64,000 nucleotides of DNA from Acidobacteriota bacterium (GTDB lineage: Bacteria; Acidobacteriota; Thermoanaerobaculia; Gp7-AA8): contig QHVT01000007.1 in assembly GCA_003223645.1 (NCBI GenBank), positions 106,531 to 170,530 on the forward strand. The letters are read 5' to 3'. Positions 21,412 through 56,950 of this stretch are shown here, one piece after another. The notes beneath the pieces are model-generated. The model did not search any database, was not told the DNA's origin, and saw nothing but the letters and a program-made list of their open reading frames with translations. The position numbers and the translations under genes are program-made. How positions within the stretch are numbered: the stretch's first letter is position 1; every line of letters begins with the position of its first letter.

Positions 21412-23334
<1,923 letters not shown>

Positions 23335-23897: not shown

Positions 23898-25064
23898 TCA
23901 CGACACTTTCTCGCTGATCGGCTCGTACGATATCAGGAGATCGCTAAGAATTTTTCTGGCTGCGTCCGCGTCGATTTTCTTGAGTTTCCGTTGCGCAGCT
24001 TCAGCCAGCACGACTCCGCAGATCTCGATGATCTGTCGCGGTAACCCCTGGCTCAGTTGATAGGCGTAATCGACATAATCATCAGTAAACGGGATGATCT
24101 CGTCCCTCTTTTGCCCATCTCGCGCTTCGGACATACGACTCACGATAAGCCGTCTAGCTTCGTCGGGAGCCAACTCTGCCGGCATTTCGACCACCTCGGA
24201 CGCCCGAATGCGTGCAAAGAAAGGGGTTATTCCGACTCCAGATTCCCCCCGGCCGCCTTCCATCATGACCTGCTGCCTCAGTCGATGCCAGTAGTCTGGA
24301 GTGGCGGCCATGAGAATCAACAATGTCGCAGCATTCGCGCCTTTTGAGAAGAAATCCACTTGCTGGTCCCAAAGATGCTTCAGGCTGTCGAGTACCGCCA
24401 CTCGTTGCGCCCTGGGAAGGGCGTCAACGTACTCGACTTCGTCGATGAACATCGCGATTGCTGTGACGCCGGCGGCATGTAACACCAGTTGAAGCGCCTG
24501 GATCACCGCAATGGCATCGTCCGACGTCCTAATTTGAAGCGTTTCGGCGATACCTGCCGCTTCAGCCTCTCTGCGAAGAATGCGGCTGCCGATCAACACT
24601 TTCCGAGCGACGGCCGCGGCATCAGGGCGCGTCAACGCAAGCAGCAAACCAACAAAGGGGCGAAGAGCGGACGGCCACCCAGCCTTAGGCGCCGCTACAT
24701 TTCGCAAGATCGGAACCAACTCGTTTTCGATATCCATGCCTCGGACGAAGAGGCGCAAAACGAGGCTGCGAGTAAAATCCCTCTTCTGTTCTGGGTCAAC
24801 GAGACGTATTGGCCCCAACCCCAACACTCGTGATTTCGTAGCTGGTTGAAGCGACCGGGCTAGCTGCCACAAGAGAAAGCTCTTGCCTGAGCCGTACGTT
24901 CCCAAGAGCACAGCATTTACTGGAGATCGCGACTGTTGCGCAAAGTTCACGATCTGCCGCAACCGCGTCCACTCAACATCGCGGCCAATTCGCTGTACGT
25001 CATAACGACCCAGCTCGAAAGGTTGCCCCTTAAGTCGATAGAGATCGAATGCTTTTGTAGACAT
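23898..25064 (-). CDS. P-loop NTPase (AAA/ORC-like ATPase), terminal gene of block 1
   Basis: Start MSTKAFDLYRLKG (ATG 25064, GGAGG 13 nt upstream; track ORF extends further 5' by overlap with next gene); Walker A LLGTYGSGKS, Walker B AMFIDEVEYVD. Confidence 0.6.
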   Translation of the reverse strand: MSTKAFDLYRLKGQPFELGRYDVQRIGRDVEWTRLRQIVNFAQQSRSPVNAVLLGTYGSGKSFLLWQLARSLQPATKSRVLGLGPIRLVDPEQKRDFTRSLVLRLFVRGMDIENELVPILRNVAAPKAGWPSALRPFVGLLLALTRPDAAAVARKVLIGSRILRREAEAAGIAETLQIRTSDDAIAVIQALQLVLHAAGVTAIAMFIDEVEYVDALPRAQRVAVLDSLKHLWDQQVDFFSKGANAATLLILMAATPDYWHRLRQQVMMEGGRGESGVGITPFFARIRASEVVEMPAELAPDEARRLIVSRMSEARDGQKRDEIIPFTDDYVDYAYQLSQGLPRQIIEICGVVLAEAAQRKLKKIDADAARKILSDLLISYEPISEKVS

Positions 25065-25080
25065 TGGCGAGGCCGCCTCC

Positions 25081-26019
25081 TTAGTGTTTACTAGTACTCT
25101 GCTTATCTGTAGTGGGCTTGAAGCGCACCGACACGAAGCCGGCGTACATATTTCCGAGCTGCAGGCCGTCGCGAGCAGGACCGCTAAATGGCGAGAATGA
25201 AACAAAATGCTCCGTAAGGAGCGTAGGTGCCTGCCGAATGATCTCGTCAAGTTGGGTATCAGATAGGAGAGTGCCGCAGTGTTGAAAGATGCGCCCAAGA
25301 TCGTCACGCAGCACGTTGATAGGCAGATACAGTTGCGTCCCAATCCTGCGAGTTGCCTTTGAATATGCTTCGAGAAGGGCTTCGCGCCGTGCTTGATTGG
25401 ATAGCGACGCAGCCGATAAGTTCGTACCTGGTGTTCTGAGAGCTTCAACGTGGCGACGATTAGCAGTCCAGATTACACCTCTATCCGTCGGGTTTTCCCT
25501 AATTACCCCAAAGAAGATCAAGTAACCGCCCCATTTCCCAAGCCGGTCAAGCGTACTGATAGCTTCGTCTCCAGTCAGGCCGAGCCTCTGCTCGATGAAT
25601 CGTCTCAACATAGTTTTGCGCCTCTCAGCCTTATGGGATGCCTCAGCAAGCCAGCCGACCAAACCGACGCGAGCCGCGTCCAGCTCGAGGAGATGCCGCG
25701 CCATGAGTTGACGTGCGTTCTCATCGTCTGCGGTTGCTATCGCTTCGGCGTAGCGTGTGACCTGTCCAGATCGAAGTGTGCCCTTAAAAAGCCGCAATTC
25801 GACAAGGCTCGGAAGCACGTACGCATTCAGGAGTGTTCTCGGCGGAATGTCTGGACGTAAGGCGACAAGTGCTGTACGGCGCCCTTCTGGCGTGCGGTGG
25901 TCCAGCAGTACGCGCAACGCCGGCAGAGTCAGGTCCGGTGGCATCTTCAAAACGGGGACCGTGAGAGGCGTCTTCGGCGGCCGACGTTTTGGCTTCGCTT
26001 TGCTTGCACTCTTCATGGC
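25081..26019 (-). CDS. hypothetical protein (block 1, gene 3)
   Basis: Start MKSASKAKPKRRPPK; no recognised motif; 7-nt overlap with upstream gene. Confidence 0.4.
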   Translation of the reverse strand, partial: AMKSASKAKPKRRPPKTPLTVPVLKMPPDLTLPALRVLLDHRTPEGRRTALVALRPDIPPRTLLNAYVLPSLVELRLFKGTLRSGQVTRYAEAIATADDENARQLMARHLLELDAARVGLVGWLAEASHKAERRKTMLRRFIEQRLGLTGDEAISTLDRLGKWGGYLIFFGVIRENPTDRGVIWTANRRHVEALRTPGTNLSAASLSNQARREALLEAYSKATRRIGTQLYLPINVLRDDLGRIFQHCGTLLSDTQLDEIIRQAPTLLTEHFVSFSPFSGPARDGLQLGNMYAGFVSVRFKPTTDKQSTSKH

Positions 26020-27152
26020 AGGCCTGCAGTTGAAGCTGCCGGAGAATGTGGCGCGGGCAATAACGGTGTGGTGCCCGGATAGCCACCCTCCCAGCAATGA
26101 TGACTATATGGGCAACGGCTACACCGCTGAAGGTCGCTGGGATGCGGTGGCACAGAGCCTGACCGAAGTATTGTCAGAGCGGAGTCTCGCTGGGTAATCC
26201 AGCGTTGGCGCTGTTGATCATCGGCCCGTATCCGATAAATTCGGTGCGACCGTAGTTTCCCTGCGGTCAAGTCGAGATCGATCGACAGTATGAATGCAGT
26301 GTTGATGCGCCGAGCCAAGGCAAATTCAGCAAAAATTGCATAACCAATCGCGACGCCCTCGTGAAACTGTTCATACGGGCCAGTCTTTAGGTCTCCGACT
26401 AACGTGACTGCGTAAAGGAAATCCGGGCACACACCGTTCCGTACGCCGAACACTCGGGCAGGGTACCTTTTGTTATCGAGGGTCACCCCAGTCTGAAGCC
26501 TTGTCAGGGCTGCCCGGGCCTCAGCCATCCAGTTGCTTGACGGCGTGAAATAGCCGAGCCCGAATCGGCCGCGGCGGCAGCGACGAAGATAGGCAATTAG
26601 AAGCTTCGTTTCGTGCCGGATTAAATCAACGATCGCCGCGAGGGTATTTGCAATCAGGTCTGCGCCACCCTCGCCGGCCATGCGCTCGGCGAAGTCATCA
26701 AGTGTGAGGTTTCGGAAATCAGGATGCTTTCCCGGGTATGTCCATTCAGAAAGAAGCCGTCGCCGTGCCGCGTCCTCCGCGGCAGTGATGATATTTGTTT
26801 CAAGATCCCTGAAGCTGACGGCTCGCCCGGTTCGGACGGACTTTTCGAATGCGTCATCCAGTTGGTCCATGCCGATCGTGTGAAGATCGACCAAAACCGG
26901 ATCGACAACTTTGCCGATTACTGAACGCGGCCATGAAGGTGTTTCGAGCTTGAGAACCTTTTCGAGGTAGATATCACGACCAGTCGGACAATATCTGGCC
27001 GACAAGCCTGTAATCGACACACCCTCGGTTCCGACCGCGGCCCGGATCTGCGATTGCTCGCCTGCATAACCGCGAAGATCCGGGGAAACTGGCAGCGGTC
27101 GATAATGCCTAAGCGTGCCGACAGCTCCGAGTTCGATTGCGACGCTAAACAT
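26013..27152 (-). CDS. putative PD-(D/E)xK nuclease of Cas4/RecB-like type with C-terminal C-x2-C-x5-C (Fe-S-like) cluster
   Basis: CPDFLYAVTLVGDLKTGPYEQF (D...D-L-K core), C-terminal CSRCPYSHHC plus N-terminal Cys (RYCPTG); 9 nt downstream of MTase stop. Confidence 0.45.
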   Translation of the reverse strand: MFSVAIELGAVGTLRHYRPLPVSPDLRGYAGEQSQIRAAVGTEGVSITGLSARYCPTGRDIYLEKVLKLETPSWPRSVIGKVVDPVLVDLHTIGMDQLDDAFEKSVRTGRAVSFRDLETNIITAAEDAARRRLLSEWTYPGKHPDFRNLTLDDFAERMAGEGGADLIANTLAAIVDLIRHETKLLIAYLRRCRRGRFGLGYFTPSSNWMAEARAALTRLQTGVTLDNKRYPARVFGVRNGVCPDFLYAVTLVGDLKTGPYEQFHEGVAIGYAIFAEFALARRINTAFILSIDLDLTAGKLRSHRIYRIRADDQQRQRWITQRDSALTILRSGSVPPHPSDLQRCSRCPYSHHCWEGGYPGTTPLLPAPHSPAASTAGLP

Positions 27153-27161
27153 CTAAGCCTT

Positions 27162-28628
27162 CTAGCTCACAGCCGGCGGCTTCCGGAGTACCAGAACGTG
27201 TTCGTGGGTGATAACGCCGGCGGTTGGATGCCGTTTTGTAAGTAAGCCACGTGACGGAATTTTGTTGCGAATACGCAGAGTTTGGGCGAAACCTAGCTTC
27301 GAGGCTAGTTCGGCGAGAATCGCCGCGTTATCAAGGAGGTGTCCCCGTACGTGATTGTTGCCGATGACAAAAACTACGTGCCCTCCTGGCTTAAGCGCCG
27401 CGTAGCAGTTGCTAACCACGACGTTCATGTCGCGGACATACTTGCTTATAATAGCGGCACGATACCGATCCTGCCGGAGTACTGACGTGATAGTTTCGTC
27501 GGCGCTCGGTGCGCCGGTCGGTTCCAACAGACTCGCCCATTCACGCTCAGGAACGCGCTCTGTGCCTATCTGCAGACGGTCGAGAGCAGACTCGTCCTGA
27601 CCATTGGCTGTATATCCAAGCACGAAAAGCTCTAGCCTGAGAGATCGAGTGTAGCGCTGAGCGTTAGCGTAGGGCGGAGAAGTAAGTATCAGGTCGATTC
27701 CGGAGACGGAGTCACCTGTTGGGTGGCCTAGGCGGCCAGCGCCGATGTAAGGGGCCGTGGCAAAAGTCCGTGCGTCCGCACCGTGGATGGTGTCGTTGGT
27801 CACGGGAATGGTTGTCGCATCGACCCAGGCCCGCAGTCGCGAAGCGTTGCTTCGGACCACGGTGTCGAGGATCGTCAAGACATCGGCGTCTTGGCGCTCT
27901 CGAAGATTTGCACGAAGCTCCCTTCGGACTGCAGCATCGCGGAATCTTCTCGGGTCGATTTTCACGGGAACGCTCACGCCAGGGTCGGCAAGAGCCACTT
28001 GCCTGACAACTGACGATGCGGCAACCAGGAAGAAGTCGCGGAGATTAGGGTCGCGTAAGCCTTCCATTGCGCGGAGCACGCGAGCGAGACGCCGCTCCAC
28101 CGATGGCGTAAACCAATGGCGTTTGTTTGGGAAATCTGGCAAGCCAAGTCGAGAAGTATCGGCGTTAAAACGGGCGACGATCCGCAGCCAAGAATCGAGA
28201 ATCGCGCGGCTTTCCAGCGGTGAAGTCTTCACCTTCGCGATGAGGCGCGCGAGCGGATTGATTTCGAGACCGACCGGGTGCATCGGGTGCACCGGGTGGA
28301 TCGGTGCCTCCACGAGAACGGTTCCACAGCCCGCAAAGGGGTCCAATAGCCGACCGAAAGGAACGGCGACGCCTCGCACCGCCAAGAAAAATAGTGGGAT
28401 ATACGGGGTCAGCCGACCAGGGTACCGGTGGAGCCGGTGAGTCATATGGTCGCCGCGCGCGGTCCAATCAGCACAATGGCGCCGGAAGTCGAAGTTTAGT
28501 GACCTTCCCGTTGCTTCGAAGCGGTCGCAGAGTCTACCGTACGCATCGGTCGCACGATCAGCGATCTCTTCTGGCTGTAAGCTCGAGCGAGTCATCCGAA
28601 ACGCCCCTTTTGAGGCTGAAGTCAGCAT
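27162..28628 (-). CDS. SAM-dependent amino-methyltransferase, probably DNA N6A/N4C MTase (motif I before motif IV)
   Basis: LLDPFAGCGTVLVEA (motif I) and LILTSPPYANAQRY (motif IV S-P-P-Y); paralog of 36580..37851; resemblance to RlmL/Trm11 m2G RNA MTases means DNA versus RNA target is unresolved. Confidence 0.6.
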   Translation of the reverse strand: MLTSASKGAFRMTRSSLQPEEIADRATDAYGRLCDRFEATGRSLNFDFRRHCADWTARGDHMTHRLHRYPGRLTPYIPLFFLAVRGVAVPFGRLLDPFAGCGTVLVEAPIHPVHPMHPVGLEINPLARLIAKVKTSPLESRAILDSWLRIVARFNADTSRLGLPDFPNKRHWFTPSVERRLARVLRAMEGLRDPNLRDFFLVAASSVVRQVALADPGVSVPVKIDPRRFRDAAVRRELRANLRERQDADVLTILDTVVRSNASRLRAWVDATTIPVTNDTIHGADARTFATAPYIGAGRLGHPTGDSVSGIDLILTSPPYANAQRYTRSLRLELFVLGYTANGQDESALDRLQIGTERVPEREWASLLEPTGAPSADETITSVLRQDRYRAAIISKYVRDMNVVVSNCYAALKPGGHVVFVIGNNHVRGHLLDNAAILAELASKLGFAQTLRIRNKIPSRGLLTKRHPTAGVITHEHVLVLRKPPAVS

Positions 28629-36483: not shown

Positions 36484-36657
36484 GATCGGCCGCGATCCGC
36501 TGTTCGACGTGATGACGATGTTAGCGCGCTTCGCGGAATGGGATGAACTGGCCGGTGCTTGCGTCACGAGCGATTTTGAGTGTCGGCATCGCGCGATGTG
36601 ATCGCGAGAGCGGCACGATACAATCCGCTCGCGCGATCTCTTTCTGCGCGACGAGCG

Positions 36658-37851
36658 ATGAAGAACGAAGCGATGACATCCGATCACCGGACCGTTGGAG
36701 CTTCTGGCTCCATGCCGCCGACCATGGCGAAAGTCAACGGGTTGCCACCATGGGCTGGCAGTGCGTGGCCCACCGAGAGTACGTTTCATCAACTGGCGCC
36801 CTACATCGGCAAGACGAAATCCACCATGGCTGCGGCGCTCATCCGAGAGTACGCGAAGCCTGGGGACGTTGTGTGCGACCCGTTTTCCGGCTGCGGCACT
36901 TTCGCGCTCGAGGCGTGGATAGCTGGGTGCCATGTAGTAGCGAATGATCTAAGCCCCTACGCGCACCTTCTGACGCGCGCGAAGCTCTTCCCCTATGAAT
37001 CTTCGGATGATGCACTTACAGATCTCGCCGCCGTCGCGAAATCGGTGGCACGTCGCCGCGCTCGGCCTGACCTCCGAACAGTTCCGCGTTGGATTCGTGA
37101 CTTCTTTCATCCCGACACACTGAAAGAAATTCTTGTGTGGACCGATGTCTTGCTGACGCAGGAGCGGTGGTTTTTGCTTGCCTGCCTCATGGGTATCCTT
37201 CATCATCAGCGACCGGGGTTTCTTTCTTTCCCCAGTAGTCACACCGTTCCTTACCTGCGCGTGAAGAAATTCCCGCGGCAACAATTTCCCAACCTCTATG
37301 CGTATCGTTCTATCCTTGATCGCCTGGAAGCGAAAGTCACGCGAGCGTTCAGGCGAGAGCCGAAGCTGAAGTTTGCGCTTCAGCGGCACTGTTTTTCAAC
37401 GCCGGCCCAGAAGCTGAAGCTCGCACGAAGCGTTGATCTAATCATCACCAGTCCGCCTTACATGCGTCAACTCGACTACGGGAGAGACAATCGCCTGCGA
37501 CTGTGGTTTCTGGGCTGCAAGGATTGGCATTCTCTCGATGACGTAGTATCGCCCGATCAGGAATCTTTTCTTGCGCTAATGGACCGATGCTTCGCGCGCT
37601 GGCATAAGTCCCTAAAGCCTCGCGGCCACTGTGTACTCGTGATCGGCGATCAATGCAGTCGTGAAGACCGAAGCGATCTACCCGATGCCGTCACTCAAAT
37701 TGCTCTGAAAGAGCGTCGCTTTTCTCTCGTTTCTTCGTACGCGGACACGATCCCAAACGAGCGGCGCGTTCGACGAGGAATCACCGGCAGCACCTCAGAG
37801 ACCGTATTGGTGCTTCGCCGAGCTCCGGAACGCGGAACGCGGCGAGCATGA
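36658..37851 (+). CDS. SAM-dependent amino-methyltransferase, paralog of 27162..28628 (alternative GTG start 36580)
   Basis: VVCDPFSGCGTFALEA (motif I), LIITSPPYMRQLDY (motif IV). Confidence 0.6.
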   Translation: MKNEAMTSDHRTVGASGSMPPTMAKVNGLPPWAGSAWPTESTFHQLAPYIGKTKSTMAAALIREYAKPGDVVCDPFSGCGTFALEAWIAGCHVVANDLSPYAHLLTRAKLFPYESSDDALTDLAAVAKSVARRRARPDLRTVPRWIRDFFHPDTLKEILVWTDVLLTQERWFLLACLMGILHHQRPGFLSFPSSHTVPYLRVKKFPRQQFPNLYAYRSILDRLEAKVTRAFRREPKLKFALQRHCFSTPAQKLKLARSVDLIITSPPYMRQLDYGRDNRLRLWFLGCKDWHSLDDVVSPDQESFLALMDRCFARWHKSLKPRGHCVLVIGDQCSREDRSDLPDAVTQIALKERRFSLVSSYADTIPNERRVRRGITGSTSETVLVLRRAPERGTRRA

Positions 37852-38263
37852 GATCTGGAAAACGGCGTGAGAAGTATGCAAACGCGACGAGCATTTCCCA
37901 GTCGAATGGATCGTGCGGCACGGTCGATGATGATACGTGGTGTTTCGAGCAGTGTGAAGGAAGCCATGGGTAGTGGCCGCGCGGCGAGGCTGTAACGGGA
38001 CGATTGCGGCACCGCGCGCGGCGTGGGCCGACGGCCAGCCGGCGTGATTGCAGACAGCCGCTGATTGCTTTCCTTGGGATATTCAGTATTCTTGATCTGC
38101 GGTCGCATGACCAACTCGAGCGATCTCACCGCGGAATGCGAACCCATGCGCGATGCGAGTTTGCCAAGGCGCTGACCGGCGGCATGCGCTTCTCACCGCG
38201 ACTGGCCGTGGTTGTTGTTCCGGGGCACTCGCTGAATAAACTTTTGGGACGGACACCTAGCGC

Positions 38264-41023
38264 ATGAATCGGCGTAACGACGACCAGTGGTGTCGAAGCT
38301 TGGCGGGCAAGATCGTTGGTAAATACAAGCTCCTTGAGTTTGTCGGTGCGGGACGCATCGGTTACGTATATCGCAGCCAACTCACTGACTTGGCCGAGTC
38401 AATGCCCGGAGTGAATCGCGCGGTTAAACTCGTGTTCGACGAGCTCCGACCTGGATGGGAAGTCGAAGTCAAGAAAGTGATGAGCCTCGAACTGATCGAG
38501 GGTGTGGTCCACTTCCACGAGTTAGGCACAGCGAGGATCGATCACAGTGGTGTCACTCACCTGTGCCAGTATACGGTATGGGACTATATTGCGCCGGGCG
38601 AAAATCTACATCAGTACTTAGCCCGTGTAGAGAGGGTTCCGGCTAGCTTTCTCATTGCACTTGTCGAGTCTGTCCTGCGTGTGTTACATGCGTGCGAAGC
38701 GCATGGCGTTGTCCGCCACGGTGATCTTCATGCCGGCAATATCCTGATCGGCGATGAGAAGACGGCACGGCTTGACGATTCTCTGCAACCGCGTGCGCCC
38801 GTTTACGTCTCCGATTTCGGTTATGGTGCCACCGGGGGGACTAAAACGCCGAAGGATGACTATGATGGGCTCGCGAACATCATCAACACGATGATTTCGC
38901 ATGTCGATCATGCGACGGCTACTTCGACTCACCGTCAGATCTTGCGAGCAATGCAGCGTGATCTCGGGAAGCTGCTTAGAGAGCGCGCGGGAGCCGAGCG
39001 CCGTACACCGCTTGAGATCCTTCGAGTTTTAGCCGACATCAGGAAGAGCGCTCAGACAAGCGAGGCTCGCGCGTCGCTTTCGCCAATCAGTTCGACGCGG
39101 CCTACCGGCCCAGTCCCCATTGACGCGCCCTCGGTCGGTCAATTTCAGGTGAGCGAAATGATCGGCGATCGCTGGGAGTGGTGGCAACGACTGTTTGTCC
39201 CCACCGTTCCGGCACGGTCGAAAATCCTCGCGCTCGACATTCCAACCGTCGTTACTGGGCCGCGTGGTTGTGGCAAGACGATGCTCTTCCGACGTCTTAG
39301 CGAGCGGCTGGTGGTGGAATGTGGTGAAGTGCCAGGCCTTCCGATTCAAAGTCGTTTTGTGGCGTTGTATGTGAACGCGAACGACTTCGCGGATGCGTTC
39401 GCCCATTTCCCGGACGCCCCATCATCGGACGACGAACAGCGACTGATTTGTTACGCGAACCTATGCATATTGGCAGATCTCCTTGCTGTACAGTCGGCCC
39501 GCGCCGGCCGGCTCAACGATCCCGCTCCAGACAGTTTGCTCGCTCTAGTGCAACGGTGGCTCATTCCGGATACGTACAACACGCTACTAGTCGGCGAAGA
39601 CCGTTTGGAGCGATACCGCGCTGTACTTGAGCAAATTAAGTGGACCTTCGGCGGTGGTGGCGGAAAGAATTCGTTCCCTGGCTATGCGGAGCTTTCACAG
39701 CATCGATGGCTGACGCGTTTGGTGCAGCAGGCCCGTGGTGCATGCGAATGGATTGGAGATCGTTCGGTGCTCCTCTTTGTGGATGATTTCTCCACGCCGC
39801 GTGTGTCTATTTCAATGCAGCGCGTGCTGAACCGCCTACTATTGCAGCGTTCACCCGACTTCCTGACAAAGGTTGCGACCGAAGCGTGGACAACGTTTGT
39901 CCCAGAAGACTCAACCGGCAAGAATCTCCAAGACGGAGACGACTATCAGCTCGTCGATATGGGCGAGGAATCGCTGTTCCTACCTGACGCAGAACGTCTC
40001 GCTTTTCTGGAGGCAGTGTTCTCGCGGCGTTTGCAGGTCGACCGCCGTGTGCCTGAAGGTGGGGCGTCACTTTCGACCTTCCTTGGACGTAACGGTCTGT
40101 CGAAAGCGGAGTTCGCGCGACGCCTGCGCGTGTCAGTTCACGACCAGGCAGAGTCCGAGCAACCAGCGGTCAGCGGAGTTTCTCAGAGACGAGGCCGTTC
40201 ACGCGGACGAGTTCGGTATTTTGGCGAGGACGTGTTTTCGAACCTGTGGTCTGGCGATACGCGAACGATGATTCAATTGGTCACCGATGTTATCGATCAA
40301 GCGTCGCAGCTGAAGGCGACGCCTGCGACTGACCCAGTGTTACGGCTTCCTGTCGATCCGTCACTTCAAGACCGAGCATTTCGGAATCGGGGCGGCGAAT
40401 GGCTGAATTCGCATACGCGAAATGAACCGACAGATCCTGAGAAGATGAAGAAGGAGCTCGCTCGCGTTCAGGCGGTTCGTCCCGGTTACAAACTGTGCGG
40501 AGAATACGGCGATCATCTAAAAGCGATCGTCGAGGCGTTCGCCGCGGCAGCGACGCAGTTGCTTCTGGGCCCAATGTACAAGATCACCGAGGGCAACACG
40601 ACCCGTGAAGTGCCGCGTATGGCGTTTCGGGTGGAGATCGTCGATGAGTTCCGGATCGACGGGTTAGCGCTGGAGATCTATCGCGACCTTATCCGGTATG
40701 GTCTTTTCATGCGCGACAACCGTGGCAAGAGCGTGCGAGGCACCTTTGTCCCACGCCTGTACCTTCGCCGGTTACTTCTGCCCTACTGCACTCTTGCACT
40801 ATCGAAACGAGACAGCGTCCCCCTTACGTCTGATTCGTTCACACAGCTTCTGTTATCTCCCGATGGTTTTAAATCGTCGTTCGTCGGTCGACGAGCTACC
40901 GGCGACCAAATGACGATGCCCTTTGTTGAACGCTACGAGGAAGAGATCGATCCCGAGTACGATGACTTGGATGACAGCGATTCGGTCGACGACACAGGAT
41001 CGGGACCTGACGATGATGAGTGA
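38264..41023 (+). CDS. fusion protein: N-terminal eukaryotic-like kinase-fold domain + central P-loop NTPase (STAND/NLR-like) + C-terminal acidic-tailed region
   Basis: Gly-rich loop FVGAGRIGYVYRS, VKLV lysine, Brenner motif VVRHGDLHAGNILIG (HGDxxxxN, lacks the canonical STK Lys), VSDFGYG (DFG); Walker A TGPRGCGKTM, Walker B LLFVDDF; terminal DDLDDSDSVDDTGSGPDDDE. Confidence 0.6.
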   Translation: MNRRNDDQWCRSLAGKIVGKYKLLEFVGAGRIGYVYRSQLTDLAESMPGVNRAVKLVFDELRPGWEVEVKKVMSLELIEGVVHFHELGTARIDHSGVTHLCQYTVWDYIAPGENLHQYLARVERVPASFLIALVESVLRVLHACEAHGVVRHGDLHAGNILIGDEKTARLDDSLQPRAPVYVSDFGYGATGGTKTPKDDYDGLANIINTMISHVDHATATSTHRQILRAMQRDLGKLLRERAGAERRTPLEILRVLADIRKSAQTSEARASLSPISSTRPTGPVPIDAPSVGQFQVSEMIGDRWEWWQRLFVPTVPARSKILALDIPTVVTGPRGCGKTMLFRRLSERLVVECGEVPGLPIQSRFVALYVNANDFADAFAHFPDAPSSDDEQRLICYANLCILADLLAVQSARAGRLNDPAPDSLLALVQRWLIPDTYNTLLVGEDRLERYRAVLEQIKWTFGGGGGKNSFPGYAELSQHRWLTRLVQQARGACEWIGDRSVLLFVDDFSTPRVSISMQRVLNRLLLQRSPDFLTKVATEAWTTFVPEDSTGKNLQDGDDYQLVDMGEESLFLPDAERLAFLEAVFSRRLQVDRRVPEGGASLSTFLGRNGLSKAEFARRLRVSVHDQAESEQPAVSGVSQRRGRSRGRVRYFGEDVFSNLWSGDTRTMIQLVTDVIDQASQLKATPATDPVLRLPVDPSLQDRAFRNRGGEWLNSHTRNEPTDPEKMKKELARVQAVRPGYKLCGEYGDHLKAIVEAFAAAATQLLLGPMYKITEGNTTREVPRMAFRVEIVDEFRIDGLALEIYRDLIRYGLFMRDNRGKSVRGTFVPRLYLRRLLLPYCTLALSKRDSVPLTSDSFTQLLLSPDGFKSSFVGRRATGDQMTMPFVERYEEEIDPEYDDLDDSDSVDDTGSGPDDDE

Positions 41024-42152
41024 CACAATGCAGCCGCTTTCCGCGGAACATGCTGAGAGCCGAGGCATTGTCTTCGGTCGACTGCCAGTGATGTCGCGTT
41101 GCGACACCCTGACGCTTCACGGCCGCGACCTTATAATCCATGCTCCCGGTTTTGAGGATCGCACGATGGCGATCGCCGGGCTGATCACTGACTCGGCGGC
41201 AGGGCGCGGTATTCTGCTCGATTATCGGCCACTCAATCTCACAAACCGGCTCACGGACGTGCGCGCCGTACTCTCCGGTAAGGGAGTCAGTATCGATGAT
41301 ACCGATATTCTGATCTACGACCGATTCAGCCCGGGAGATTTCGAGAGGCGCTTGGCTGAACGGCTCGCGGTTTGCGATGCCGAGCGCGTGTTCGTTGATA
41401 TTTCGAGTATGTCGAAGTTGGCAATATTGCTTGTTCTGGATGTGTGTCGACGCCTCGGTTTACACATCGTCGTGCTCTATGCTGAGGCTGAACGATACCG
41501 CCCGACGAAAGAAGAGTTTGAGCAGGCTCGACTAGCGAATGAGATTCATCAACCAAGCCTGCAAGTCTTCACTGGTGTGCATGGTGTGGTGAGGGTTGAC
41601 TCTCTGGCCAGCGTGGCGATGCAGGGACAGCCTACGGCGGCATTGGTCTTCATGTCTTTCAACGATGTACTAACACAGGTTCTGCTGAACACCGTTTTCC
41701 CCGGTCGCCTCTTTTTGATTAACGGTCGACCGCCAGTGCATTCATGGCGAGAGGCTGCGACGGCGTGGATCCATGCTCAGGTTCGCTCGGAATGGGACGA
41801 AGACAACCCCCAGAGTTCGGAGTCCGATAGTTTGTTGCCGCTGCGAACCACATCGACCTTGGACTACCGTGAGTCCGTGCAACTACTCGTGGAGCTTTAT
41901 TGGAGCCTATCCGCGAATCACCGCATCTTACTGGCCCCTTCAGGAAGCAAGATGCAGGCTGTGGCTTGTCATGTCGTGAAATCTCTGCATCCCGACATAC
42001 ACATCGAATATCCGTCGCCAGAGGGTTTCGTGCCGGAGTACAGCACTGGTGTGGCGGCCGTCTGGTCGCTGGATCTGGGACGATGGCCCGATACGTTGGC
42101 GTCGATCGCGGAAGCTGAACGGCAAACATACCTAGAGATTCCCCCATGCTAG
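41012..42152 (+). CDS. hypothetical protein (block 2, gene 3), translationally coupled on both sides
   Basis: ~380 aa from MSDTMQPLSAEH; no motif recognised by eye. Confidence 0.45.
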
Positions 42153-43183
42153 GCAAGGGTTCATCACGTGGACGGACCCCCGGCACGAAGCGCGCGCGCG
42201 CGACGCGTGGTGAGCGTACAGGCCAACCTAACGGTGCGAAAGAATCGACCGACACTGACCGGGATTCTCCATCAGCTCTCACACGGCCGAACCAACCCGC
42301 AATAGATGTCATTTTAGGGCGGCCTTTTCGCGTGCTCGATGACGGTTTCGCTCGCGTAATTGATTACATGGGCGATGATGCCGCTATCGTTCAGGCGGCC
42401 CGAGTGTCATATGGTCGGGGTACGAAGCGCGTGCACGACGACCGGGGGTTGATCAGGTATCTAATGCGACACTGGCACACGACGCCGTTCGAGATGTGCG
42501 AACTCAAGCTTCACGTGCGAGTCCCGATGGACACCTGGCGGCAGTGGATCAGGCACCGGACGGCGAATGTGAATGAGTACTCGACACGGTATTCTGTTGC
42601 GATTGACGCGGCGCAACGCACAGCACCGGATGCTTGGCGACTGCAAGCACCGGGAAACCGCCAAGGAAGTGCGGGCCGCGTAGCGTCTGCCGTTGGTCAA
42701 CGCCTAACGGAGTCGGAGCGACGTGTACAGAAGCAATCGCGCAGCGTGTACGAGGAGCGGCTGGCGGCTGGCGTTGCACGTGAGCAGGCACGGAAGGATC
42801 TTCCGCTATCCACGTACACGGAAGCATACTGGAAAGTGGATTTGCATAACCTGTTGCATTTTCTCCGGCTCCGTATGGATCCCAATGCGCAGGAGGAAAT
42901 CCGTGCATACGCGAACGTGATCGCGGAGGAGATCGTCGCGAAATGGGTTCCACTCACATGGGAAGCGTTTCTAGACTATCGGCTCAACGCGTTGCAGTTG
43001 TCGAGCATCGCGGCGGCGATAGTCAATGCGCTGTCTGTTCCGGATCGAGAGCTTGCGTGCCGGATCGCGTCCGAACATGGGCTCCTTCAATCAGATAGTG
43101 AAGGGCACCTTCGGCCGAATCGAGAGAGAACTGAGCTTGAGGCGACACTGTTAAAGCTCGGCATTGACTTGCCATGGCGGTAA
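42146..43183 (+). CDS. thyX: flavin-dependent thymidylate synthase ThyX with ~55-aa Arg/Lys-rich N-terminal extension
   Basis: ThyX signature RHRTANVNEYSTRY (RHR-x7-S-x-RY); N-terminal MLGKGSSRGRTPGTKRARATRGERTGQ... tail; no alternative in-frame start before the catalytic core. Confidence 0.75.
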   Translation: MLGKGSSRGRTPGTKRARATRGERTGQPNGAKESTDTDRDSPSALTRPNQPAIDVILGRPFRVLDDGFARVIDYMGDDAAIVQAARVSYGRGTKRVHDDRGLIRYLMRHWHTTPFEMCELKLHVRVPMDTWRQWIRHRTANVNEYSTRYSVAIDAAQRTAPDAWRLQAPGNRQGSAGRVASAVGQRLTESERRVQKQSRSVYEERLAAGVAREQARKDLPLSTYTEAYWKVDLHNLLHFLRLRMDPNAQEEIRAYANVIAEEIVAKWVPLTWEAFLDYRLNALQLSSIAAAIVNALSVPDRELACRIASEHGLLQSDSEGHLRPNRERTELEATLLKLGIDLPWR

Positions 43184-43189
43184 ACCCGC

Positions 43190-43430
43190 GGTCGTCCACG
43201 ATGCCGGCTTGCTCACCGCGGCCGCGGAAGGTGCGATCGGCCTGCGTACGATCGGTGGCGCCGCCGCCGTGCGCGATCCACGTCCCGCCGCACGCGCGCA
43301 GGATCGGTTCGATGCCGGTCACGTGACCGCTGGCCGGCCGCTGCACGACGACGTTGCCTTCGGCATCCCATTCATGCGAGTACGGTTCGTGCTTCCGCAG
43401 ATCGACCGACAAGCGCAGGCGCCAGGACAT
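43190..43430 (-). pseudogene. 5' fragment (~80 codons) of a high-G+C host gene apparently truncated at the block 2 boundary
   Basis: MSWRLRLSVDLRKHEPYSHEWDAEGNVVVQRPASGHVTGIEPILRACGGTWIAHGGGATDRT... with strong GC3 bias for ~80 codons; track ORF (43023..43430) then continues without stop into lower-G+C DNA antisense to thyX. Confidence 0.3.
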
Positions 43431-43462
43431 CCGCGAGCGATTGTGTGGCTTAGACTCGCCGC

Positions 43463-44020
43463 ATGGGACTCTTGACCTTCAGCATCAACGTCACCCTGGA
43501 CGGCTGCGTCGATCACCAGGAGGGAATCGCCGACGACGAGACACACGCCTTCTTCACGCGCCTCATGGACGAGGGCGGGGCGATGCTGTGGGGCCGCGTC
43601 ACCTACGAGATGATGGAGAGCTACTGGCCGGCGGTCGCCCGCGGCGACGAGGAGGCGCCGCCGGCGATGCGCGAGTGGGCGGTCAAGCTGGAGGCCAAGC
43701 CGAAGTACGTGGTGTCATCGACGCGAAAGGACTTCCCGTGGACCAACAGCCACCACATCGCCGGCGACCTGCGCACGGGCGTGCAGAAGCTCAAGGACGC
43801 GACCCCGGCCGGCGTGCTCCTCGGTAGCGGCAAGCTCGCGACCGAGCTGGACCGGCTGGATCTGATCGACGAGTACAAGTTCCTCGTCCACCCCAGGATC
43901 GCTGGCCACGGCCCGACTCTGTACCAGAGCGGACTGCCCAGCACGCGACGGCTCGAGCTGGTCTCGGCGAAGCCGCTCCGCAGCGGCGCGGTCGCCATGC
44001 ACTACCGGCGCGCGCGCTGA
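43463..44020 (+). CDS. dihydrofolate reductase-family protein (RibD C-terminal domain type)
   Basis: 185 aa; MGLLTFSINVTLDGCVD...MLWGRVTYEMM...GVLLGSGKLATEL pattern of RibD_C/YwjB-like reductases. Confidence 0.65.
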   Translation: MGLLTFSINVTLDGCVDHQEGIADDETHAFFTRLMDEGGAMLWGRVTYEMMESYWPAVARGDEEAPPAMREWAVKLEAKPKYVVSSTRKDFPWTNSHHIAGDLRTGVQKLKDATPAGVLLGSGKLATELDRLDLIDEYKFLVHPRIAGHGPTLYQSGLPSTRRLELVSAKPLRSGAVAMHYRRAR

Positions 44021-44285
44021 CTCAGAGCAGCCCCATCGCGCCCAGCTCGCGGGCCAGCGCGTCGGTTGAAGCTGGATGGGTTCTGCGGAACGTTATCCGT
44101 CGAAGGACATCGCGGACGTTTCCTCTCGAAGACGAAGAAGCCGGTGAGACGTTTCGATCCGCTCGCGAACGCGATCGCGCAGGACGGCTAACTCCGCGCT
44201 TCGATCCCATTGATCACGCACAGCCCTTTTTCAAAACTCCAGCCGCAGCCCCAGCCGCGTTCGTAACCCGCGGCACAAGTAGTCT

Positions 44286-48891: not shown

Positions 48892-51201
48892 ATGGCCACC
48901 CGCAGATCGAAAGACCAGCTTCCCCTCACTCCACCACCGCCGCCCACCATCCCCGACGTCGAAACGCTGGCCGTCGGCGACTTCGCGCGCAAGGCGTACC
49001 TCGACTATTCGATGTACGTCATTCTCGATCGCGCGCTGCCGCACCTCGCGGACGGATTGAAACCGGTGCAGCGGCGCATCATCTACGCGATGTCCGAGCT
49101 CGGCCTCGGGTACACGTCGAAGCCGAAGAAATCCGCGCGCACGGTCGGCGACGTGATCGGCAAGTTTCATCCGCACGGCGACACGGCGTGCTACGACGCG
49201 ATGGTGTTGATGGCGCAGTCGTTCTCGATGCGCTATCCGTTGATCGAAGGACAGGGAAACTGGGGCTCGCCGGACGATCCGAAATCGTTCGCGGCGATGC
49301 GGTACACCGAGGCGAAGCTCGCGAAGTTCGCGCAATCGCTGCTCTCGGAGTTGGAGCAAGGGACGGTCGAGTGGGGACAGAACTTCGACGGCACGCTGAA
49401 AGAGCCGAAGCTGTTGCCGTCGCGACTGCCGCACGTGCTGCTCAACGGCGCGGCCGGCATCGCCGTCGGAATGGCGACCGACATTCCGTCGCACAACCTG
49501 CGCGAGGTCGTCAACGCGTGCATCGAGCTGCTCGACAATCCCGACGCGACGATCGCGCAGCTGACGAAACACATCAAGGGTCCCGACTTTCCGACCGCCG
49601 CCGAGATCATCACGCCGCTGGCGGAGATCCGCGAAATGTACAAGACCGGCCTCGGCTCGATTCGCCAGCGTGCGAAGTGGGACGAAGAAGACGGCAAGAT
49701 CGTGATCTCGGCGCTGCCCGCGGGCGTGTCGGGCGCGAAGGTACAGCAGCAGATCGCGGCGCAGCTGGCGGCGAAGAAGTTGCCGATGGTCGAGGATGTT
49801 CAGGACGAATCGGACCGCGAGGATCCGACGCGTCTCGTCATTTTTCCGCGCTCGAACCGCATCGATCTCAACGAGCTGATGACGCACCTCTTCGCGACGA
49901 CGGACCTGGAGAAGTCGTACCGCGTGAACATGAACATGATCGGCCTCGACGGCCGGCCGCGTCTGTACGCGCTGAAGGATCTGCTGCAGGAATGGCTCGA
50001 GTTCCGGATCGAGACGGTCCGGCGCCGCCTGCAGTATCGCTACGATCAGGTCAACGCGCGGCTGCATCTCCTCGAAGGGTTGATGGTCGCGTACCTCAAC
50101 ATCGACGAGGTGATCCGCATCATCCGCACGGCCGACGATCCGAAGGCCGAGCTGATGAGCCGGTTCAAGCTCACCGAGGCGCAGACCGAGTACATCCTCG
50201 AGCTGAGGCTGCGCTACCTCAACAAGCTGCAGGAGATGGAGATCCGCGGCGAGCAGAAGAAGCTGGAGGACGAGCGCGCGGAGCTCGAGAAAATCCTCGG
50301 GTCGAAAGCGCGTTTGCGCAAGCAGGTGCGCGACGAGCTGCTGCGCGACGTGGAAGAATTCGGCGACAAGCGAGTGTCGCCGATCGTCGAGCGCGAGGCG
50401 GCGAAGGCGATGGACGCGACGGCGCTCATTCCGTCCGAGTCGGTGACGGTGGTGTTGTCGGAGCGCGGATGGGTGCGCGCGGGGAAGGGTCACGACCTCG
50501 ATCCGACCGCGCTGCAATATCGATCGGGCGACGCGTTCCTGCACGCGGCGAAAGGGCGCAGCAACCAGCTCGCGGTCTTCATCGACTCGACGGGACGCAC
50601 GTATTCACTCCCCGCGCACGAATTGCCGTCGGCGAAGAGTCACGGCGAGCCGCTCACGTCGTCGCTCGCGCCTCCCGGCGGCGCGACGTTCATCGGCGTG
50701 ATGATGGGCGAGGCGGATGACTTGTGGCTGCTCACGACCGACGACGGCTACGGATTCGTCGCGCGCCTCGAAGACATGATGACGCGACTGAAGGCAGGCA
50801 AAGCCGTCGTGAACGTCGGCAAAGGGGCGAGCGTGCTGCGGCCGCAGCGCGTTCTCAATTACGAGACGGATTTCATCGCCGCGGCGTCGACGGAAGGGAA
50901 GCTGCTGTTGTTCGAAGCCGCGGAGCTGCCCGTGCTCGCGCGCGGCAAAGGCGTGCAGACGATCAAACTGCACCGCACGCCGATCGCGCCGGAGAAAGTC
51001 GTCGGCACCGCGGTCGTCCCGGCCGGCGGCACACTCGTCGTCCACGCCGGCAAGCGCTACACGAACCTCAAGGGCGGCGATGACCTCGACAGCTACATCG
51101 GCAAACGCGCGCAGCGCGGACTGAAACTGCCGCGCGGGTTCCAGAACGTGAATTTGATTCGCACGTGGAGCGAGCGGGATCGGGCGGAGCCGGTGAATTG
51201 A
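48892..51201 (+). CDS. parC: DNA topoisomerase IV subunit A
   Basis: 769 aa; [44 protein letters not shown], catalytic-Tyr region [10 protein letters not shown]. Confidence 0.9.
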
Positions 51202-55810: not shown

Positions 55811-56749
55811 ATGCTCGAACGAATCCGGAACGCGGTGCGTGCGAGCGCAGATGAGAAACCTCTTCCGCGCAAGACGACCGAGGTGCGCTTCGACGGCCTC
55901 GGCCTCCAGGATCCGATCGAGCGCGCGCAGACGCACGAGCCCGCGCTGATCCTCCTCGAGGGCGACTTTCCGGGACAGGTGTTTCGCCTGCGGCAGGGAC
56001 GGCAGATCATCGGACGCCGACCGGAGTGCGACATCCGCCTGCGCGAGCGCGCGGTCAGCGGCATTCACGCGGAGGTCGTGCGTATGCGCGACACCGTCAC
56101 GATCAACGACCTCGCCAGCACCAACGGCACGCTCGTCAACGGCATGCGCATCCGCCATCCGGTTCCGCTGGTCGGCGGCAATCTGCTGAAGGTCGGCAAC
56201 TGCGTGTTCAAGTACGTCGACTCGCTGCTCGACGTCGAGTTCACCGAGGCGCTGCATTCGCGCGGCATCACCGACCAGCTCACCGGCGCTTACAACAAGG
56301 CCTACATCGTCGCGCGGCTCGCGTTTCTGATCGACACGGCCTCGGACACGAAGCCGATGAGTTTGATCACGTTCGACTTCGACAACTTCAAACAGGTGAA
56401 CGATCAGTTCGGACACGCGGCCGGCGACTACGTGCTGCGCGCGACGTCGTCGCTGATCGTCTCGCAGTTCGTGCGGCCGCAGGACGTGTTCGCGCGGACG
56501 GGCGGCGAAGAGTTCGTGATCGTGCTGCCGGAGACGCCGCTCGACGTCGCGACGAAAGTGGCGGAGCGCATCCGGCAGATGTTCGAAGAGAAGACGTTCG
56601 AGTTCGAGGGACAGGAGATCCGGCTCACGTCTTCGTTCGGCGTCTGCAGCCTGACGAGCGCGGTGGAACCGCCGGAGGCGCTGCTCGAGCGCGTCGACGA
56701 TCTGCTGTACCGCTCCAAGCGCGAAGGCCGCAATCGCGTGACGGCGTAG
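55811..56749 (+). CDS. FHA-domain-containing diguanylate cyclase (FHA + GGDEF)
   Basis: FHA core (QIIGRRPECDIRLRERAVSGIHAEV...TNGTLVNG); GGDEF domain with RTGGEEF active site and RxxD-like region. Confidence 0.8.
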   Translation: MLERIRNAVRASADEKPLPRKTTEVRFDGLGLQDPIERAQTHEPALILLEGDFPGQVFRLRQGRQIIGRRPECDIRLRERAVSGIHAEVVRMRDTVTINDLASTNGTLVNGMRIRHPVPLVGGNLLKVGNCVFKYVDSLLDVEFTEALHSRGITDQLTGAYNKAYIVARLAFLIDTASDTKPMSLITFDFDNFKQVNDQFGHAAGDYVLRATSSLIVSQFVRPQDVFARTGGEEFVIVLPETPLDVATKVAERIRQMFEEKTFEFEGQEIRLTSSFGVCSLTSAVEPPEALLERVDDLLYRSKREGRNRVTA

Positions 56750-56950
56750 CGCCTTCCTCGGTCACGCAGTTGCGCGGTCACTCGGTTGCGCGGGGAAGCA
56801 GCGCCGCGCAACCGAGCGACTACGCAACCGAGCAACCGGGTGAGGGCGTAGCGCCTTCCTCGGTTACGCAGTTGCGCGGTCACTCGGTTGCGCGGGGAAG
56901 CAGCGCCGGGCAACTGAGCGACTGCGCAACCGAGCAACCGGGTGAGGGCG
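56747..56950. repeat. 2 x 102-bp tandem direct repeat, each unit with internal dyads
   Basis: Unit agcgccttcctcggtcacgcagttgcgcggtcactcggttgcgcggggaagcagcgccgcgcaaccgagcgactacgcaaccgagcaaccgggtgagggcgt repeated with few mismatches; contains ctcggttgcgcgg...ccgcgcaaccgag 13-bp inverted repeat; fills the whole gap between convergent genes. Confidence 0.85.

Follow-up and report, generated by a model that had tools for sequence, protein, structure and literature searches.

A mobile candidate defence cassette joining a methyltransferase, a kinase-ATPase, a tandem-CARF protein and an accessory ThyX in an Acidobacteriota genome

The window considered here, a stretch of 64,000 nucleotides from an Acidobacteriota bacterium of the Thermoanaerobaculia (assembly GCA_003223645.1, contig QHVT01000007.1, positions 106,531 to 170,530 of the forward strand), contains a block of four co-oriented genes on the plus strand that, judged by its composition and its boundaries, is foreign, horizontally acquired DNA. 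The genes encode a methyltransferase (MTase), a fusion of a protein kinase with an ATPase (P2), a protein that by its predicted structure is built from two CARF domains (P3), and the flavin-dependent thymidylate synthase ThyX. With moderate confidence the block is regarded as a mobile, uncharacterised candidate defence cassette directed against mobile genetic elements such as phages and plasmids. ThyX is an accessory gene of this cassette and not part of its core, which is the triad of MTase, P2 and P3.

The island and its four products

The initial annotation had described the block as richer in A and T than its surroundings and as foreign DNA, and both statements are borne out. The G+C fraction is 0.56-0.59 in 1-kb windows between 37 and 43 kb compared with approximately 0.62-0.68 on either side, and G+C at third codon positions (GC3) is 0.60-0.63 for all four cassette genes compared with 0.80-0.94 for neighbouring genes. 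A metagenome locus, L001, aligns to the window by blastn at 94% nucleotide identity exactly over 36601-37828 and 37828-43186, and its flanks are unrelated to those of the window. Because the match ends at 36601 and 43186 between unrelated flanks, the transferred unit can be equated with these four genes. Neither att-like repeats nor tRNA genes were found at the island borders, no CRISPR array and no Rfam families were found in the window, and no strain with an empty site was found, each contig with an identical sigma factor also having the island. The features of the block, with positions in the window, are the following.

36601..43186, plus strand: horizontally acquired island, the whole cassette (94% nucleotide identity to L001, unrelated flanks; GC3)
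36580..37851, plus strand: amino-methyltransferase, N6_N4 family (Pfam N6_N4_Mtase 1.1e-10; PADLOC MTase_II 9.4e-21)
37828..38263, no strand: MTase-P2 spacer; at 37828 the loci L001, L004 and L005 hold an extra 1.9 kb
38264..39160, plus strand: P2, Hanks-type protein kinase domain, residues ~1-300 (catalytic motifs; PDB profile matches; PADLOC PD-T4-6 1.6e-10)
39191..41023, plus strand: P2, ORC/Cdc6-type AAA+ ATPase (residues ~310-620; PF24389), C-terminal domain and acidic tail
41013..42152, plus strand: P3, stand-alone 2xCARF protein of 379 amino acids (aa), translationally coupled to P2 (PADLOC CARF6 models; predicted structure)
42146..43183, plus strand: ThyX, canonical flavin-dependent thymidylate synthase (Pfam Thy1 8.7e-51; TIGR02170 1e-51), with a variable tail (residues 1-44), a subfamily N-terminal segment (45-62) and the Thy1 domain (70-269)

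The open reading frames (ORFs) at 36580..37851, 38264..41023 and 42146..43183 exist as first annotated, and so does the third gene of the block, except that its start had been placed at 41012, out of frame by one base, and the in-frame ATG is at 41013. The last three genes had been described as chained by start/stop overlaps, and this arrangement holds: the P2 stop codon (41021-41023) lies beyond the P3 start at ATG 41013 or 41016, an overlap of 11 or 8 nt, and the P3 stop codon (42150-42152) lies beyond the ThyX ATG at 42146, an overlap of 7 nt (ATGCTAG). The same overlaps, or overlaps of 4 nt, are seen in relatives. The spacer between the MTase and P2 genes is the site of a length difference among close relatives. 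At the position equivalent to 37828 the extra 1.9 kb of L001, L004 and L005 comprises, at 5684-7417 in L001 and at 5898-7631 in L004 and L005, a GmrSD_N/DUF262 gene (1.5e-21) and an ORF of 211 aa without a Pfam match, and the window differs from these loci by a clean 1.9-kb indel.

The start of the MTase gene is uncertain (36580, 36658 or ~36712, the latter two being the public gene calls), and homologues align from residue ~56. Its motif I (DPFSGCG) precedes motif IV (TSPPY), both motifs are invariant in 23 of 23 loci, and the invariance extends to TSPPYM. The SPPY motif is typical of N4-cytosine methylases, and the enzyme is predicted to methylate host DNA at N4-cytosine or N6-adenine as a mark of self.

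P2 is a protein of 919 aa that contains each of the previously noted motifs, GPRGCGKT, LLFVDDF and HGDLHAGN, and ends in the acidic tail that had also been noted. Its N-terminus carries the complete set of Hanks-type kinase features, namely the Gly-rich loop (GxGxxGxV), the beta3 Lys (K55 of AxK), the alphaC Glu (E68), the HxD...N element (D154 and N159 of HGDxHxGN) and DFG (D184), each at least 95% conserved among 41 sequences from both clades of the family (see below). Pfam Pkinase scores 17 bits on the single P2 sequence, below the gathering cutoff, many homologues carry a precomputed PF00069 match, and a sequence search of the PDB with P2 alone gave no match. The kinase family profile finds ULK1, PknA, PKR, CDK9 and StkP in the PDB (E 1e-12 to 1e-7), and the 60 PDB matches listed are all protein kinases, with no aminoglycoside phosphotransferase (APH) or choline kinase among them; the domain also matches the PD-T4-6 defence kinase models of PADLOC. 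A small-molecule kinase of the APH or choline-kinase type had been suggested initially, and these matches, which among those listed are to Ser/Thr protein kinases only, argue by similarity that the P2 kinase is not of that kind. The middle of P2 matches PF24389 (ORC-CDC6-like) at 5.5e-25 and 88.6 bits (cutoff 27), and Walker A (GPRGCGKT, K338) and the DD of Walker B (507-508) are invariant in the P2 alignment; from their conserved catalytic residues, both kinase and ATPase are predicted to be active. The C-terminal ~280 residues include a conserved domain with a near-invariant basic motif, RGKSxRGxxVPRLYLRRLLLP. NACHT reaches E=0.078 and 13 bits (cutoff 26.7) and no repeat domains (TPR, WD40, LRR) were detected, so that the proposed STAND/NLR-like architecture, for an NTPase that is of ORC/Cdc6-type AAA+ and has no repeat sensor, survives as a loose analogy at most.

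P3 had been left as an unknown protein, and it does lack a Pfam family, but structure prediction shows a tandem CARF arrangement. The single-sequence AlphaFold model had a predicted local distance difference test score (pLDDT) of 37 and was replaced by a model from a 90-sequence multiple sequence alignment spanning both clades, with pLDDT 92 and a predicted template-modelling score (pTM) of 0.92. In this model P3 has the Rossmann-like CARF fold, and its closest structural neighbours are CARF effectors that bind cyclic oligoadenylate (cOA), such as Can1, Can2, Csm6, Card1 and Cam1. P3 also matches the PADLOC CARF6 models (1e-8). The CARF signature is a polar or basic motif after strand 4, of the type [DN]x[ST]xxx[RK], and such a motif is found in both halves of P3, as D129-I-S131-S-M-S-K135 after the strand at 125-129 and as S310-G-S-K313 after the strand at 304-308; in the 90 sequences S131, S134, G311, S312 and K313 are invariant, D129 is at least 90% conserved and position 135 is K or R. 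On the strength of its modelled fold P3 is a tandem CARF (2xCARF) protein, and by analogy with its structural neighbours it would bind a nucleotide-derived ligand. An exhaustive profile search returned relatives amounting to ~1,400 cluster representatives at 50% identity, mostly stand-alone proteins of ~350 aa, from Acidobacteriota, Proteobacteria, Myxococcota, Gemmatimonadota and others. Rare fusions join the 2xCARF unit to a calcineurin-like phosphoesterase (P0440), to a histidine kinase with HisKA and HATPase_c (P0466) or to TIR (P0488), and association with such varied partners is behaviour typical of a sensor input module. Sequence comparison of P3 with the PDB gave no match, the Foldseek viral library gave generic Rossmann matches only, and neither P2 nor P3 has a family in PHROGs.

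ThyX is canonical throughout, scoring 172.9 bits against PF02511, 175.5 bits against TIGR02170 (cutoff 87.9) and 2e-68 against PDB 6j61, with an intact RHR-x7-S motif (RHRTANVNEYS), 53-55% identity to phage ThyX and 50-60% identity to solved and housekeeping ThyX proteins. ATG 42146 is the sole start codon upstream of residues 45-62, which are conserved across the subfamily including housekeeping relatives and phage ThyX, and the N-terminal tail must therefore be translated. This substantiates one part of the initial description, in which ThyX carried a basic tail; the other part, that such a tail sets the protein apart, extends no further than the close relatives, the tail being Arg/Lys-rich in the window, L001, L002 and L004 and neutral or acidic in other cassettes. 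A functional role of the basic tail in binding nucleic acid was rejected because the tail is not conserved. An origin of thyX as the native member of a thyX-dihydrofolate reductase (DHFR) locus was likewise rejected: its GC3 is that of the island, the block shared with L001 includes it, and the neighbouring RibD_C/DHFR-family gene is itself mobile.

Conservation of the triad and its thymidylate-synthase partners

Sampling through P3 yielded 30 distinct loci from seven or more phyla, with P2 next to P3 in all 30 and the MTase in 29, the exception having insertion sequence (IS) elements upstream. The order of the genes varies, and the MTase may be divergent or lie downstream of ThyX. As initially expected, the genes form a conserved unit, in so far as MTase, P2 and P3 are concerned, and the co-occurrence of these three in other genomes is strong. 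For P2 as for P3, relatives at 60-70% identity number in the hundreds and come from distant lineages, including Thermoanaerobaculia, Bryobacterales, Vicinamibacterales, Bradyrhizobium, Burkholderiales, Gemmatimonadales, Latescibacterota and Desulfobacterales, and a second clade of both proteins, 26-32% identical and also represented among the 30 loci, is found in Myxococcota, Acidobacteriota and an archaeon. The neighbourhoods are those of mobile and defence genes, with IS elements, integrases, serine recombinases, AbiEii, toxin-antitoxin pairs, type I restriction-modification (R-M), nSTAND3-Mrr and conjugation genes; two of 2.9 million viral contigs carry the cassette. Among 27 loci compared, no further recurrent neighbour gene was found beside the triad and the thymidylate synthase (TS).

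A full cassette resides on plasmid pBq66S1MBc of the cultured Bradyrhizobium quebecense 66S1MB (L034, NZ_CP088025.1 69538-75559), which makes experiments feasible; the products corresponding to P2 and P3 bear the annotation hypothetical protein. On this plasmid P2 is annotated as two coding sequences, a 246-aa kinase and a 652-aa ATPase, representing a natural split or a frameshift. A gene annotated as a restriction endonuclease lies two genes upstream of the cassette on this plasmid only.

The structural neighbours of P3 raise the alternative that P2 and P3 are an accessory effector of cOA made by a type III CRISPR-Cas system or other cyclase elsewhere, the MTase and TS being separate matters. 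In its favour are those same cOA-binding matches, the placement of the family among the CARF models of PADLOC, and the lack of a cyclase in the cassette itself. The linkage of the MTase in 29 of 30 loci and in several gene orders is, however, far beyond chance; no cas gene or CRISPR array occurs in the loci examined, nor a CRISPR array in the window; and the cassette is self-contained across phyla, including on the Bradyrhizobium plasmid. We consider this alternative improbable.

ThyX is present in 14 of the 30 cassette loci and absent from 16. Where present it may follow P3 on the same strand, in some cases with an overlap; lie downstream and convergent (L026); stand between P3 and the MTase in the order P2-P3-ThyX-MTase (L012, L018); or upstream of the MTase (L028, probably L062). 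In the more divergent L062 (603-4892) ThyX comes first, and after it an MTase-like gene at 26% identity and a P2-like ATPase at 22% identity, which suggests that further remote ThyX-first versions of the cassette exist. In two of the loci without ThyX, L024 and L025, the position directly after P3 is taken by ThyA (PF00303, 4e-123), which is not homologous to ThyX. The two loci share only MTase-P2-P3-ThyA and not their flanks. The displacement of ThyX by ThyA indicates that the cassette is linked to the activity of a dTMP synthase as such. The thyA of L024 sits within the low-G+C island. In L025 a FolA homologue lies on the other side of the triad, which is thus placed between thyA and folA on the same strand. 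ThyA requires DHFR to recycle folate, and ThyX does not. A truncated thyA (aa 1-98) with host-like G+C abuts the L024 island at 7119-7427 on the minus strand, next to the complete copy inside, and may be what is left of a host thyA that the island disrupted or replaced.

As a control, 80 metagenomic ThyX relatives of the same identity range (57-71%) were sampled. None of the 24 with at least 3 kb on both sides adjoined a cassette (5 of 80 overall), and 17 of 80 were next to folA. Of 19 cassette-linked ThyX proteins placed on a neighbour-joining tree, 18 fell into one subtree, compared with 6 of 30 known non-cassette proteins (Fisher p~2e-7); the tree is without bootstrap support, and its subtree was delimited after viewing. 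The subtree holds no folA-linked member, and its six non-cassette ThyX genes have housekeeping contexts such as ftsA-ftsZ-thyX and thyX-dut. Together the subtree and these contexts indicate that an ordinary ThyX lineage was taken up by the cassette and has for the most part stayed with it.

How the TS relates to the triad can be explained in several ways. A tentative preference, held at somewhat less than even confidence, is that it serves a defence-related nucleotide pool, providing ThyA/DHFR-independent dTMP during infection or countering phages that replace thymidine. ThyX would keep the dTMP supply free of a host ThyA/DHFR route manipulated by the phage, and would complement discrimination based on DNA modification as the GmrSD-like insert may do in close relatives. 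The coupling of P3 to ThyX, the internal position of ThyX in some operons and the GmrSD-like insert fit this explanation; GmrSD-like proteins target phages with modified DNA. A rather less probable explanation is that the triad is defensive and the TS has no part in defence, serving instead the island, either as homology for landing at host thyA or thyX loci or through capture of an essential gene. It draws on the truncated host-G+C thyA right at the edge of the L024 island with its complete thyA inside, on the position of the L025 triad within the classic host pair thyA...folA, on the location of the TS gene mostly at the cassette edge, on the housekeeping lineage of the cassette ThyX, and on the dispensability of ThyX in the 16 loci that lack it. 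Against it, ThyX has an internal position in L012 and L018, its coupling to P3 is seen in the window and in L001-L005, no TS remnants were found at the window junctions or at any locus besides L024, the adjacency of thyX to a DHFR-family gene in the window is probably chance, and ThyX-bearing cassettes also occur on a plasmid and in contexts of integrative and conjugative elements and IS elements. That the TS is a neutral hitch-hiker, or has some other explanation, is also given rather limited credence.

The initial annotation had drawn a parallel with thymidine hypermodification in phages, a pathway that employs a ThyA-like dUMP hydroxymethylase, a P-loop 5-hydroxymethyldeoxyuridine (5-hmdU) DNA kinase and downstream transferases. 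On such a model a modified pyrimidine would come from ThyX, serve as substrate of the kinase and receive its final modification from the MTase. One operon does combine an MTase and a kinase with an enzyme of the TS family, but the ThyX is canonical, with its identity to solved and housekeeping enzymes and its RHR-x7-S motif intact; half of the cassettes lack it, and it is interchangeable with ThyA; the kinase has the eukaryotic-type protein kinase (ePK) fold, unlike the P-loop 5-hmdU DNA kinase of the pathway; and the vicinity has no conserved transferases, whether glycosyl-, aminoacyl- or of another type. The parallel thus finds no support, and the model is very improbable.

Proposed function and its alternatives

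From the composition, gene order, conservation, folds and motifs observed we infer each functional step of a working model, which follows the pattern of Pgl/BREX-2 (PglX, PglW and an ATPase), of MADS and of stand-alone defence kinases. The MTase would mark self DNA. P2 would be a DNA-associated scanner and effector that engages DNA through its AAA+/C-terminal module, and P3 would bind a nucleotide-derived signal on infection and gate P2. The signal received by P3, together with ATP-dependent engagement of unmodified DNA by the ORC/Cdc6 module, would switch on the kinase, and the kinase would then phosphorylate host or phage proteins and thereby arrest phage replication or cell growth. A defence role had been proposed from the outset, and it is the best reading here given the mobile and defence contexts and the conserved triad.

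The components would also suit a mobile epigenetic, signalling or addiction module outside defence, in which an orphan MTase and a nucleotide-sensing kinase regulate the host. No nuclease or known toxic effector is present, kinase, ATPase and CARF are all generic signalling parts, and fusions of 2xCARF with a histidine kinase exist. This alternative is unlikely when set against the consistent location of the cassette among defence and mobile genes, its patchy transfer across phyla at 60-70% identity, the insertion of a GmrSD-like gene into the operon in relatives and the resemblance of the kinase to PD-T4-6 defence kinases.

Several observations weigh against the defence interpretation or parts of it. 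No cyclase (Cas10, CD-NTase, mCpol) is conserved near the cassette in the 27 loci, and no nuclease or other evident killing effector is conserved there. The origin of the CARF ligand is thus the main gap in the model; a cyclase encoded elsewhere in the genome may supply it, or it may be a metabolite. CARF domains can also work through protein-protein contacts, as reported for RtcR (PMC9650030), and P3 may do the same. The MTase weakly matches the RNA-methylase families UPF0020 and TIGR01177 as well, and its substrate may be DNA or RNA. The TS gene is missing from about half of the loci and is thus not needed for the core function; the L024 thyA remnant and the thyA/folA bracket of L025 fit a role in integration or maintenance as well as they fit defence; and the ThyX subtree was drawn after the fact. 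Finally, no experimental characterisation or phage-resistance phenotype was found for any family member.

A speculative and quite unlikely possibility is that P3 senses the pyrimidine-deoxynucleotide pool, in the form of dUMP- or dTMP-related or phage-modified nucleotides, and not a CRISPR or CBASS messenger. ThyX, or ThyA with FolA, would in that case set or buffer the signal, and a metabolite-guarding sensor would couple thymidylate metabolism to a kinase/AAA+ effector and to epigenetic self-marking.

If the candidate defence cassette were validated, a widespread system would be added to those known, given the number of P3 relatives (~1,400 clusters at 50% identity). It would provide the first CARF-gated protein kinase/ATPase effector, one without an evident cyclase, and would extend CARF signalling past nucleases, proteases and deaminases. 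As a minimal BREX/Pgl-like set of MTase, kinase and ORC/Cdc6 ATPase it could ease study of the kinase arm, which in such systems is poorly understood. The recurrent capture of a TS by a defence island, where ThyX and ThyA can stand in for each other, would point to an immunity layer acting on the nucleotide pool or to island-stabilising capture of an essential gene.

Neighbouring features and known systems

Other features of the window include a second low-GC3 island on the minus strand, at 23898..28628.

21439..23334: ParE/GyrB-like topoisomerase gene
23898..25448, minus strand: BrxD/ORC-like AAA_16 ATPase
26013..27152, minus strand: Cas4/Csa1-like PD-(D/E)XK nuclease
27162..28628, minus strand: SPPY-type MTase, 27% identical to the cassette MTase and with the same motif order
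43463..44020, plus strand: RibD_C/DHFR-family gene, 185 aa, GC3 0.94, in a unit at ~43402..44064
48892..51201: ParC/GyrA-like topoisomerase gene

The second island amounts to another cassette of MTase, nuclease and ATPase, which PADLOC does not name. The two topoisomerase genes bracket ~25 kb that include both low-G+C islands, and this interval may be a variable region between linked core genes. The RibD_C protein occurs with identical sequence in ~1,700 collection blocks of unrelated context, and twice in contigs of one assembly, and its gene moves as a unit of ~0.6 kb at 97-99% nucleotide identity. At one locus (L120) the 3' 42-bp tail of the unit precedes the gene, an arrangement suggestive of a cassette-like mobile gene in circularly permuted form. 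Being promiscuous and mobile, the RibD_C gene has probably come to adjoin thyX by chance. An intergenic tandem repeat of 102 bp (2.2 copies, 94% matches) occupies 56730..56950.

The closest catalogued counterpart of the cassette is the PADLOC-DB 2.0 model CARF6--CARF_STK_AAA (PDLC01925), which has the same domain content as P2 and P3 together. Residues 95-612 of P2 match it at 1.7e-18 and align to positions 118-619 of its 1187 (kinase and AAA), and the first half of P3 matches the C-terminal part, positions 890-1015; that P2 and P3 match one profile indicates that fused versions exist. P3 also aligns end to end with CARF6--CARF_CARF_CARF (PDLC01917). Both models presumably derive from the CARF census of Makarova et al. 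2020. The window differs from the fused form in having kinase-ATPase and CARF as separate, coupled genes and in its near-obligatory MTase and frequent TS partners, neither of which the model names imply. The fused kinase-ATPase-CARF architecture is therefore already catalogued, and the split form with MTase and TS linkage was not found described. In the searchable literature, the census of 2020 aside, no description was found of the split two-gene form, its MTase partner or the TS association, and searches of it on ThyX and defence, on CARF and thymidylate synthase, and on CARF with kinase and MTase returned nothing relevant. The initial statement that this is not a named system accordingly holds, with the proviso of the PADLOC candidate model for the fused form.

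Among named systems, Pgl/BREX-2, with the MTase PglX, the kinase PglW carrying an ORC/Cdc6-like domain, the ORC/Cdc6 ATPases BrxC/BrxD and PglZ, resembles the cassette in that a single operon encodes a DNA MTase, a Ser/Thr kinase and an ORC/Cdc6 AAA+ ATPase and lacks a classical restriction nuclease (PMC12839542). The cassette differs in lacking PglZ, BrxA, BrxB and a helicase, in an ATPase that is catalytically intact by its motifs and fused to the kinase, in an MTase from a different, small SPPY family, and in its CARF sensor, of which BREX has none. No PglZ is found in the cassette or among recurrent neighbours, the PglX match is partial and weak (1.7e-7), P2 does not match the BrxC_BrxD Pfam model, and the cassette belongs to none of the BREX-related systems described in PMC12839542. 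MADS (mad1-8) is a methylation-based defence that needs a kinase and ATPases, and its MacSyFinder model makes MAD6, MAD7 and MAD8 mandatory (bioRxiv 10.1101/2023.03.30.534895). The cassette shows weak hidden Markov model matches to mad2 (1.7e-9), mad6 (kinase part, 1.7e-7) and mad8 (0.013), those to mad6 and mad8 being partial, and has no counterpart of MAD7, while MADS has eight genes including a specificity subunit and is without a CARF protein or a thymidylate synthase.

The remaining comparisons concern single components. P3 differs from Can1 and the other type III CRISPR-Cas CARF effectors in having no effector domain fused to it and no CRISPR-Cas system or cyclase nearby, and to our knowledge a protein kinase/ATPase output belongs to no characterised class of CARF effector. 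The N-terminus of P2 shares all Hanks catalytic motifs with kinases of the PD-T4-6/Stk2 type and matches PD-T4-6, which is a single-gene system, whereas the cassette kinase shares a polypeptide with an AAA+ ATPase and has an MTase and a CARF protein as partners. Type II R-M would include a nuclease gene, and none is conserved with the cassette in the 27 loci; STAND/NLR proteins are set apart by the sub-threshold NACHT score and the lack of a repeat domain in P2, and thymidine-hypermodification systems by the canonical TS, the ePK-fold kinase and the lack of conserved transferases. The ThyX of the cassette is a full-length, canonical likeness of housekeeping and phage enzymes (PDB 6j61, T. maritima TM0449, Rhodobacter phage ThyX), and differs from them in lying inside a mobile, defence-type cassette, in its coupling to a CARF gene and in its largely separate subtree.

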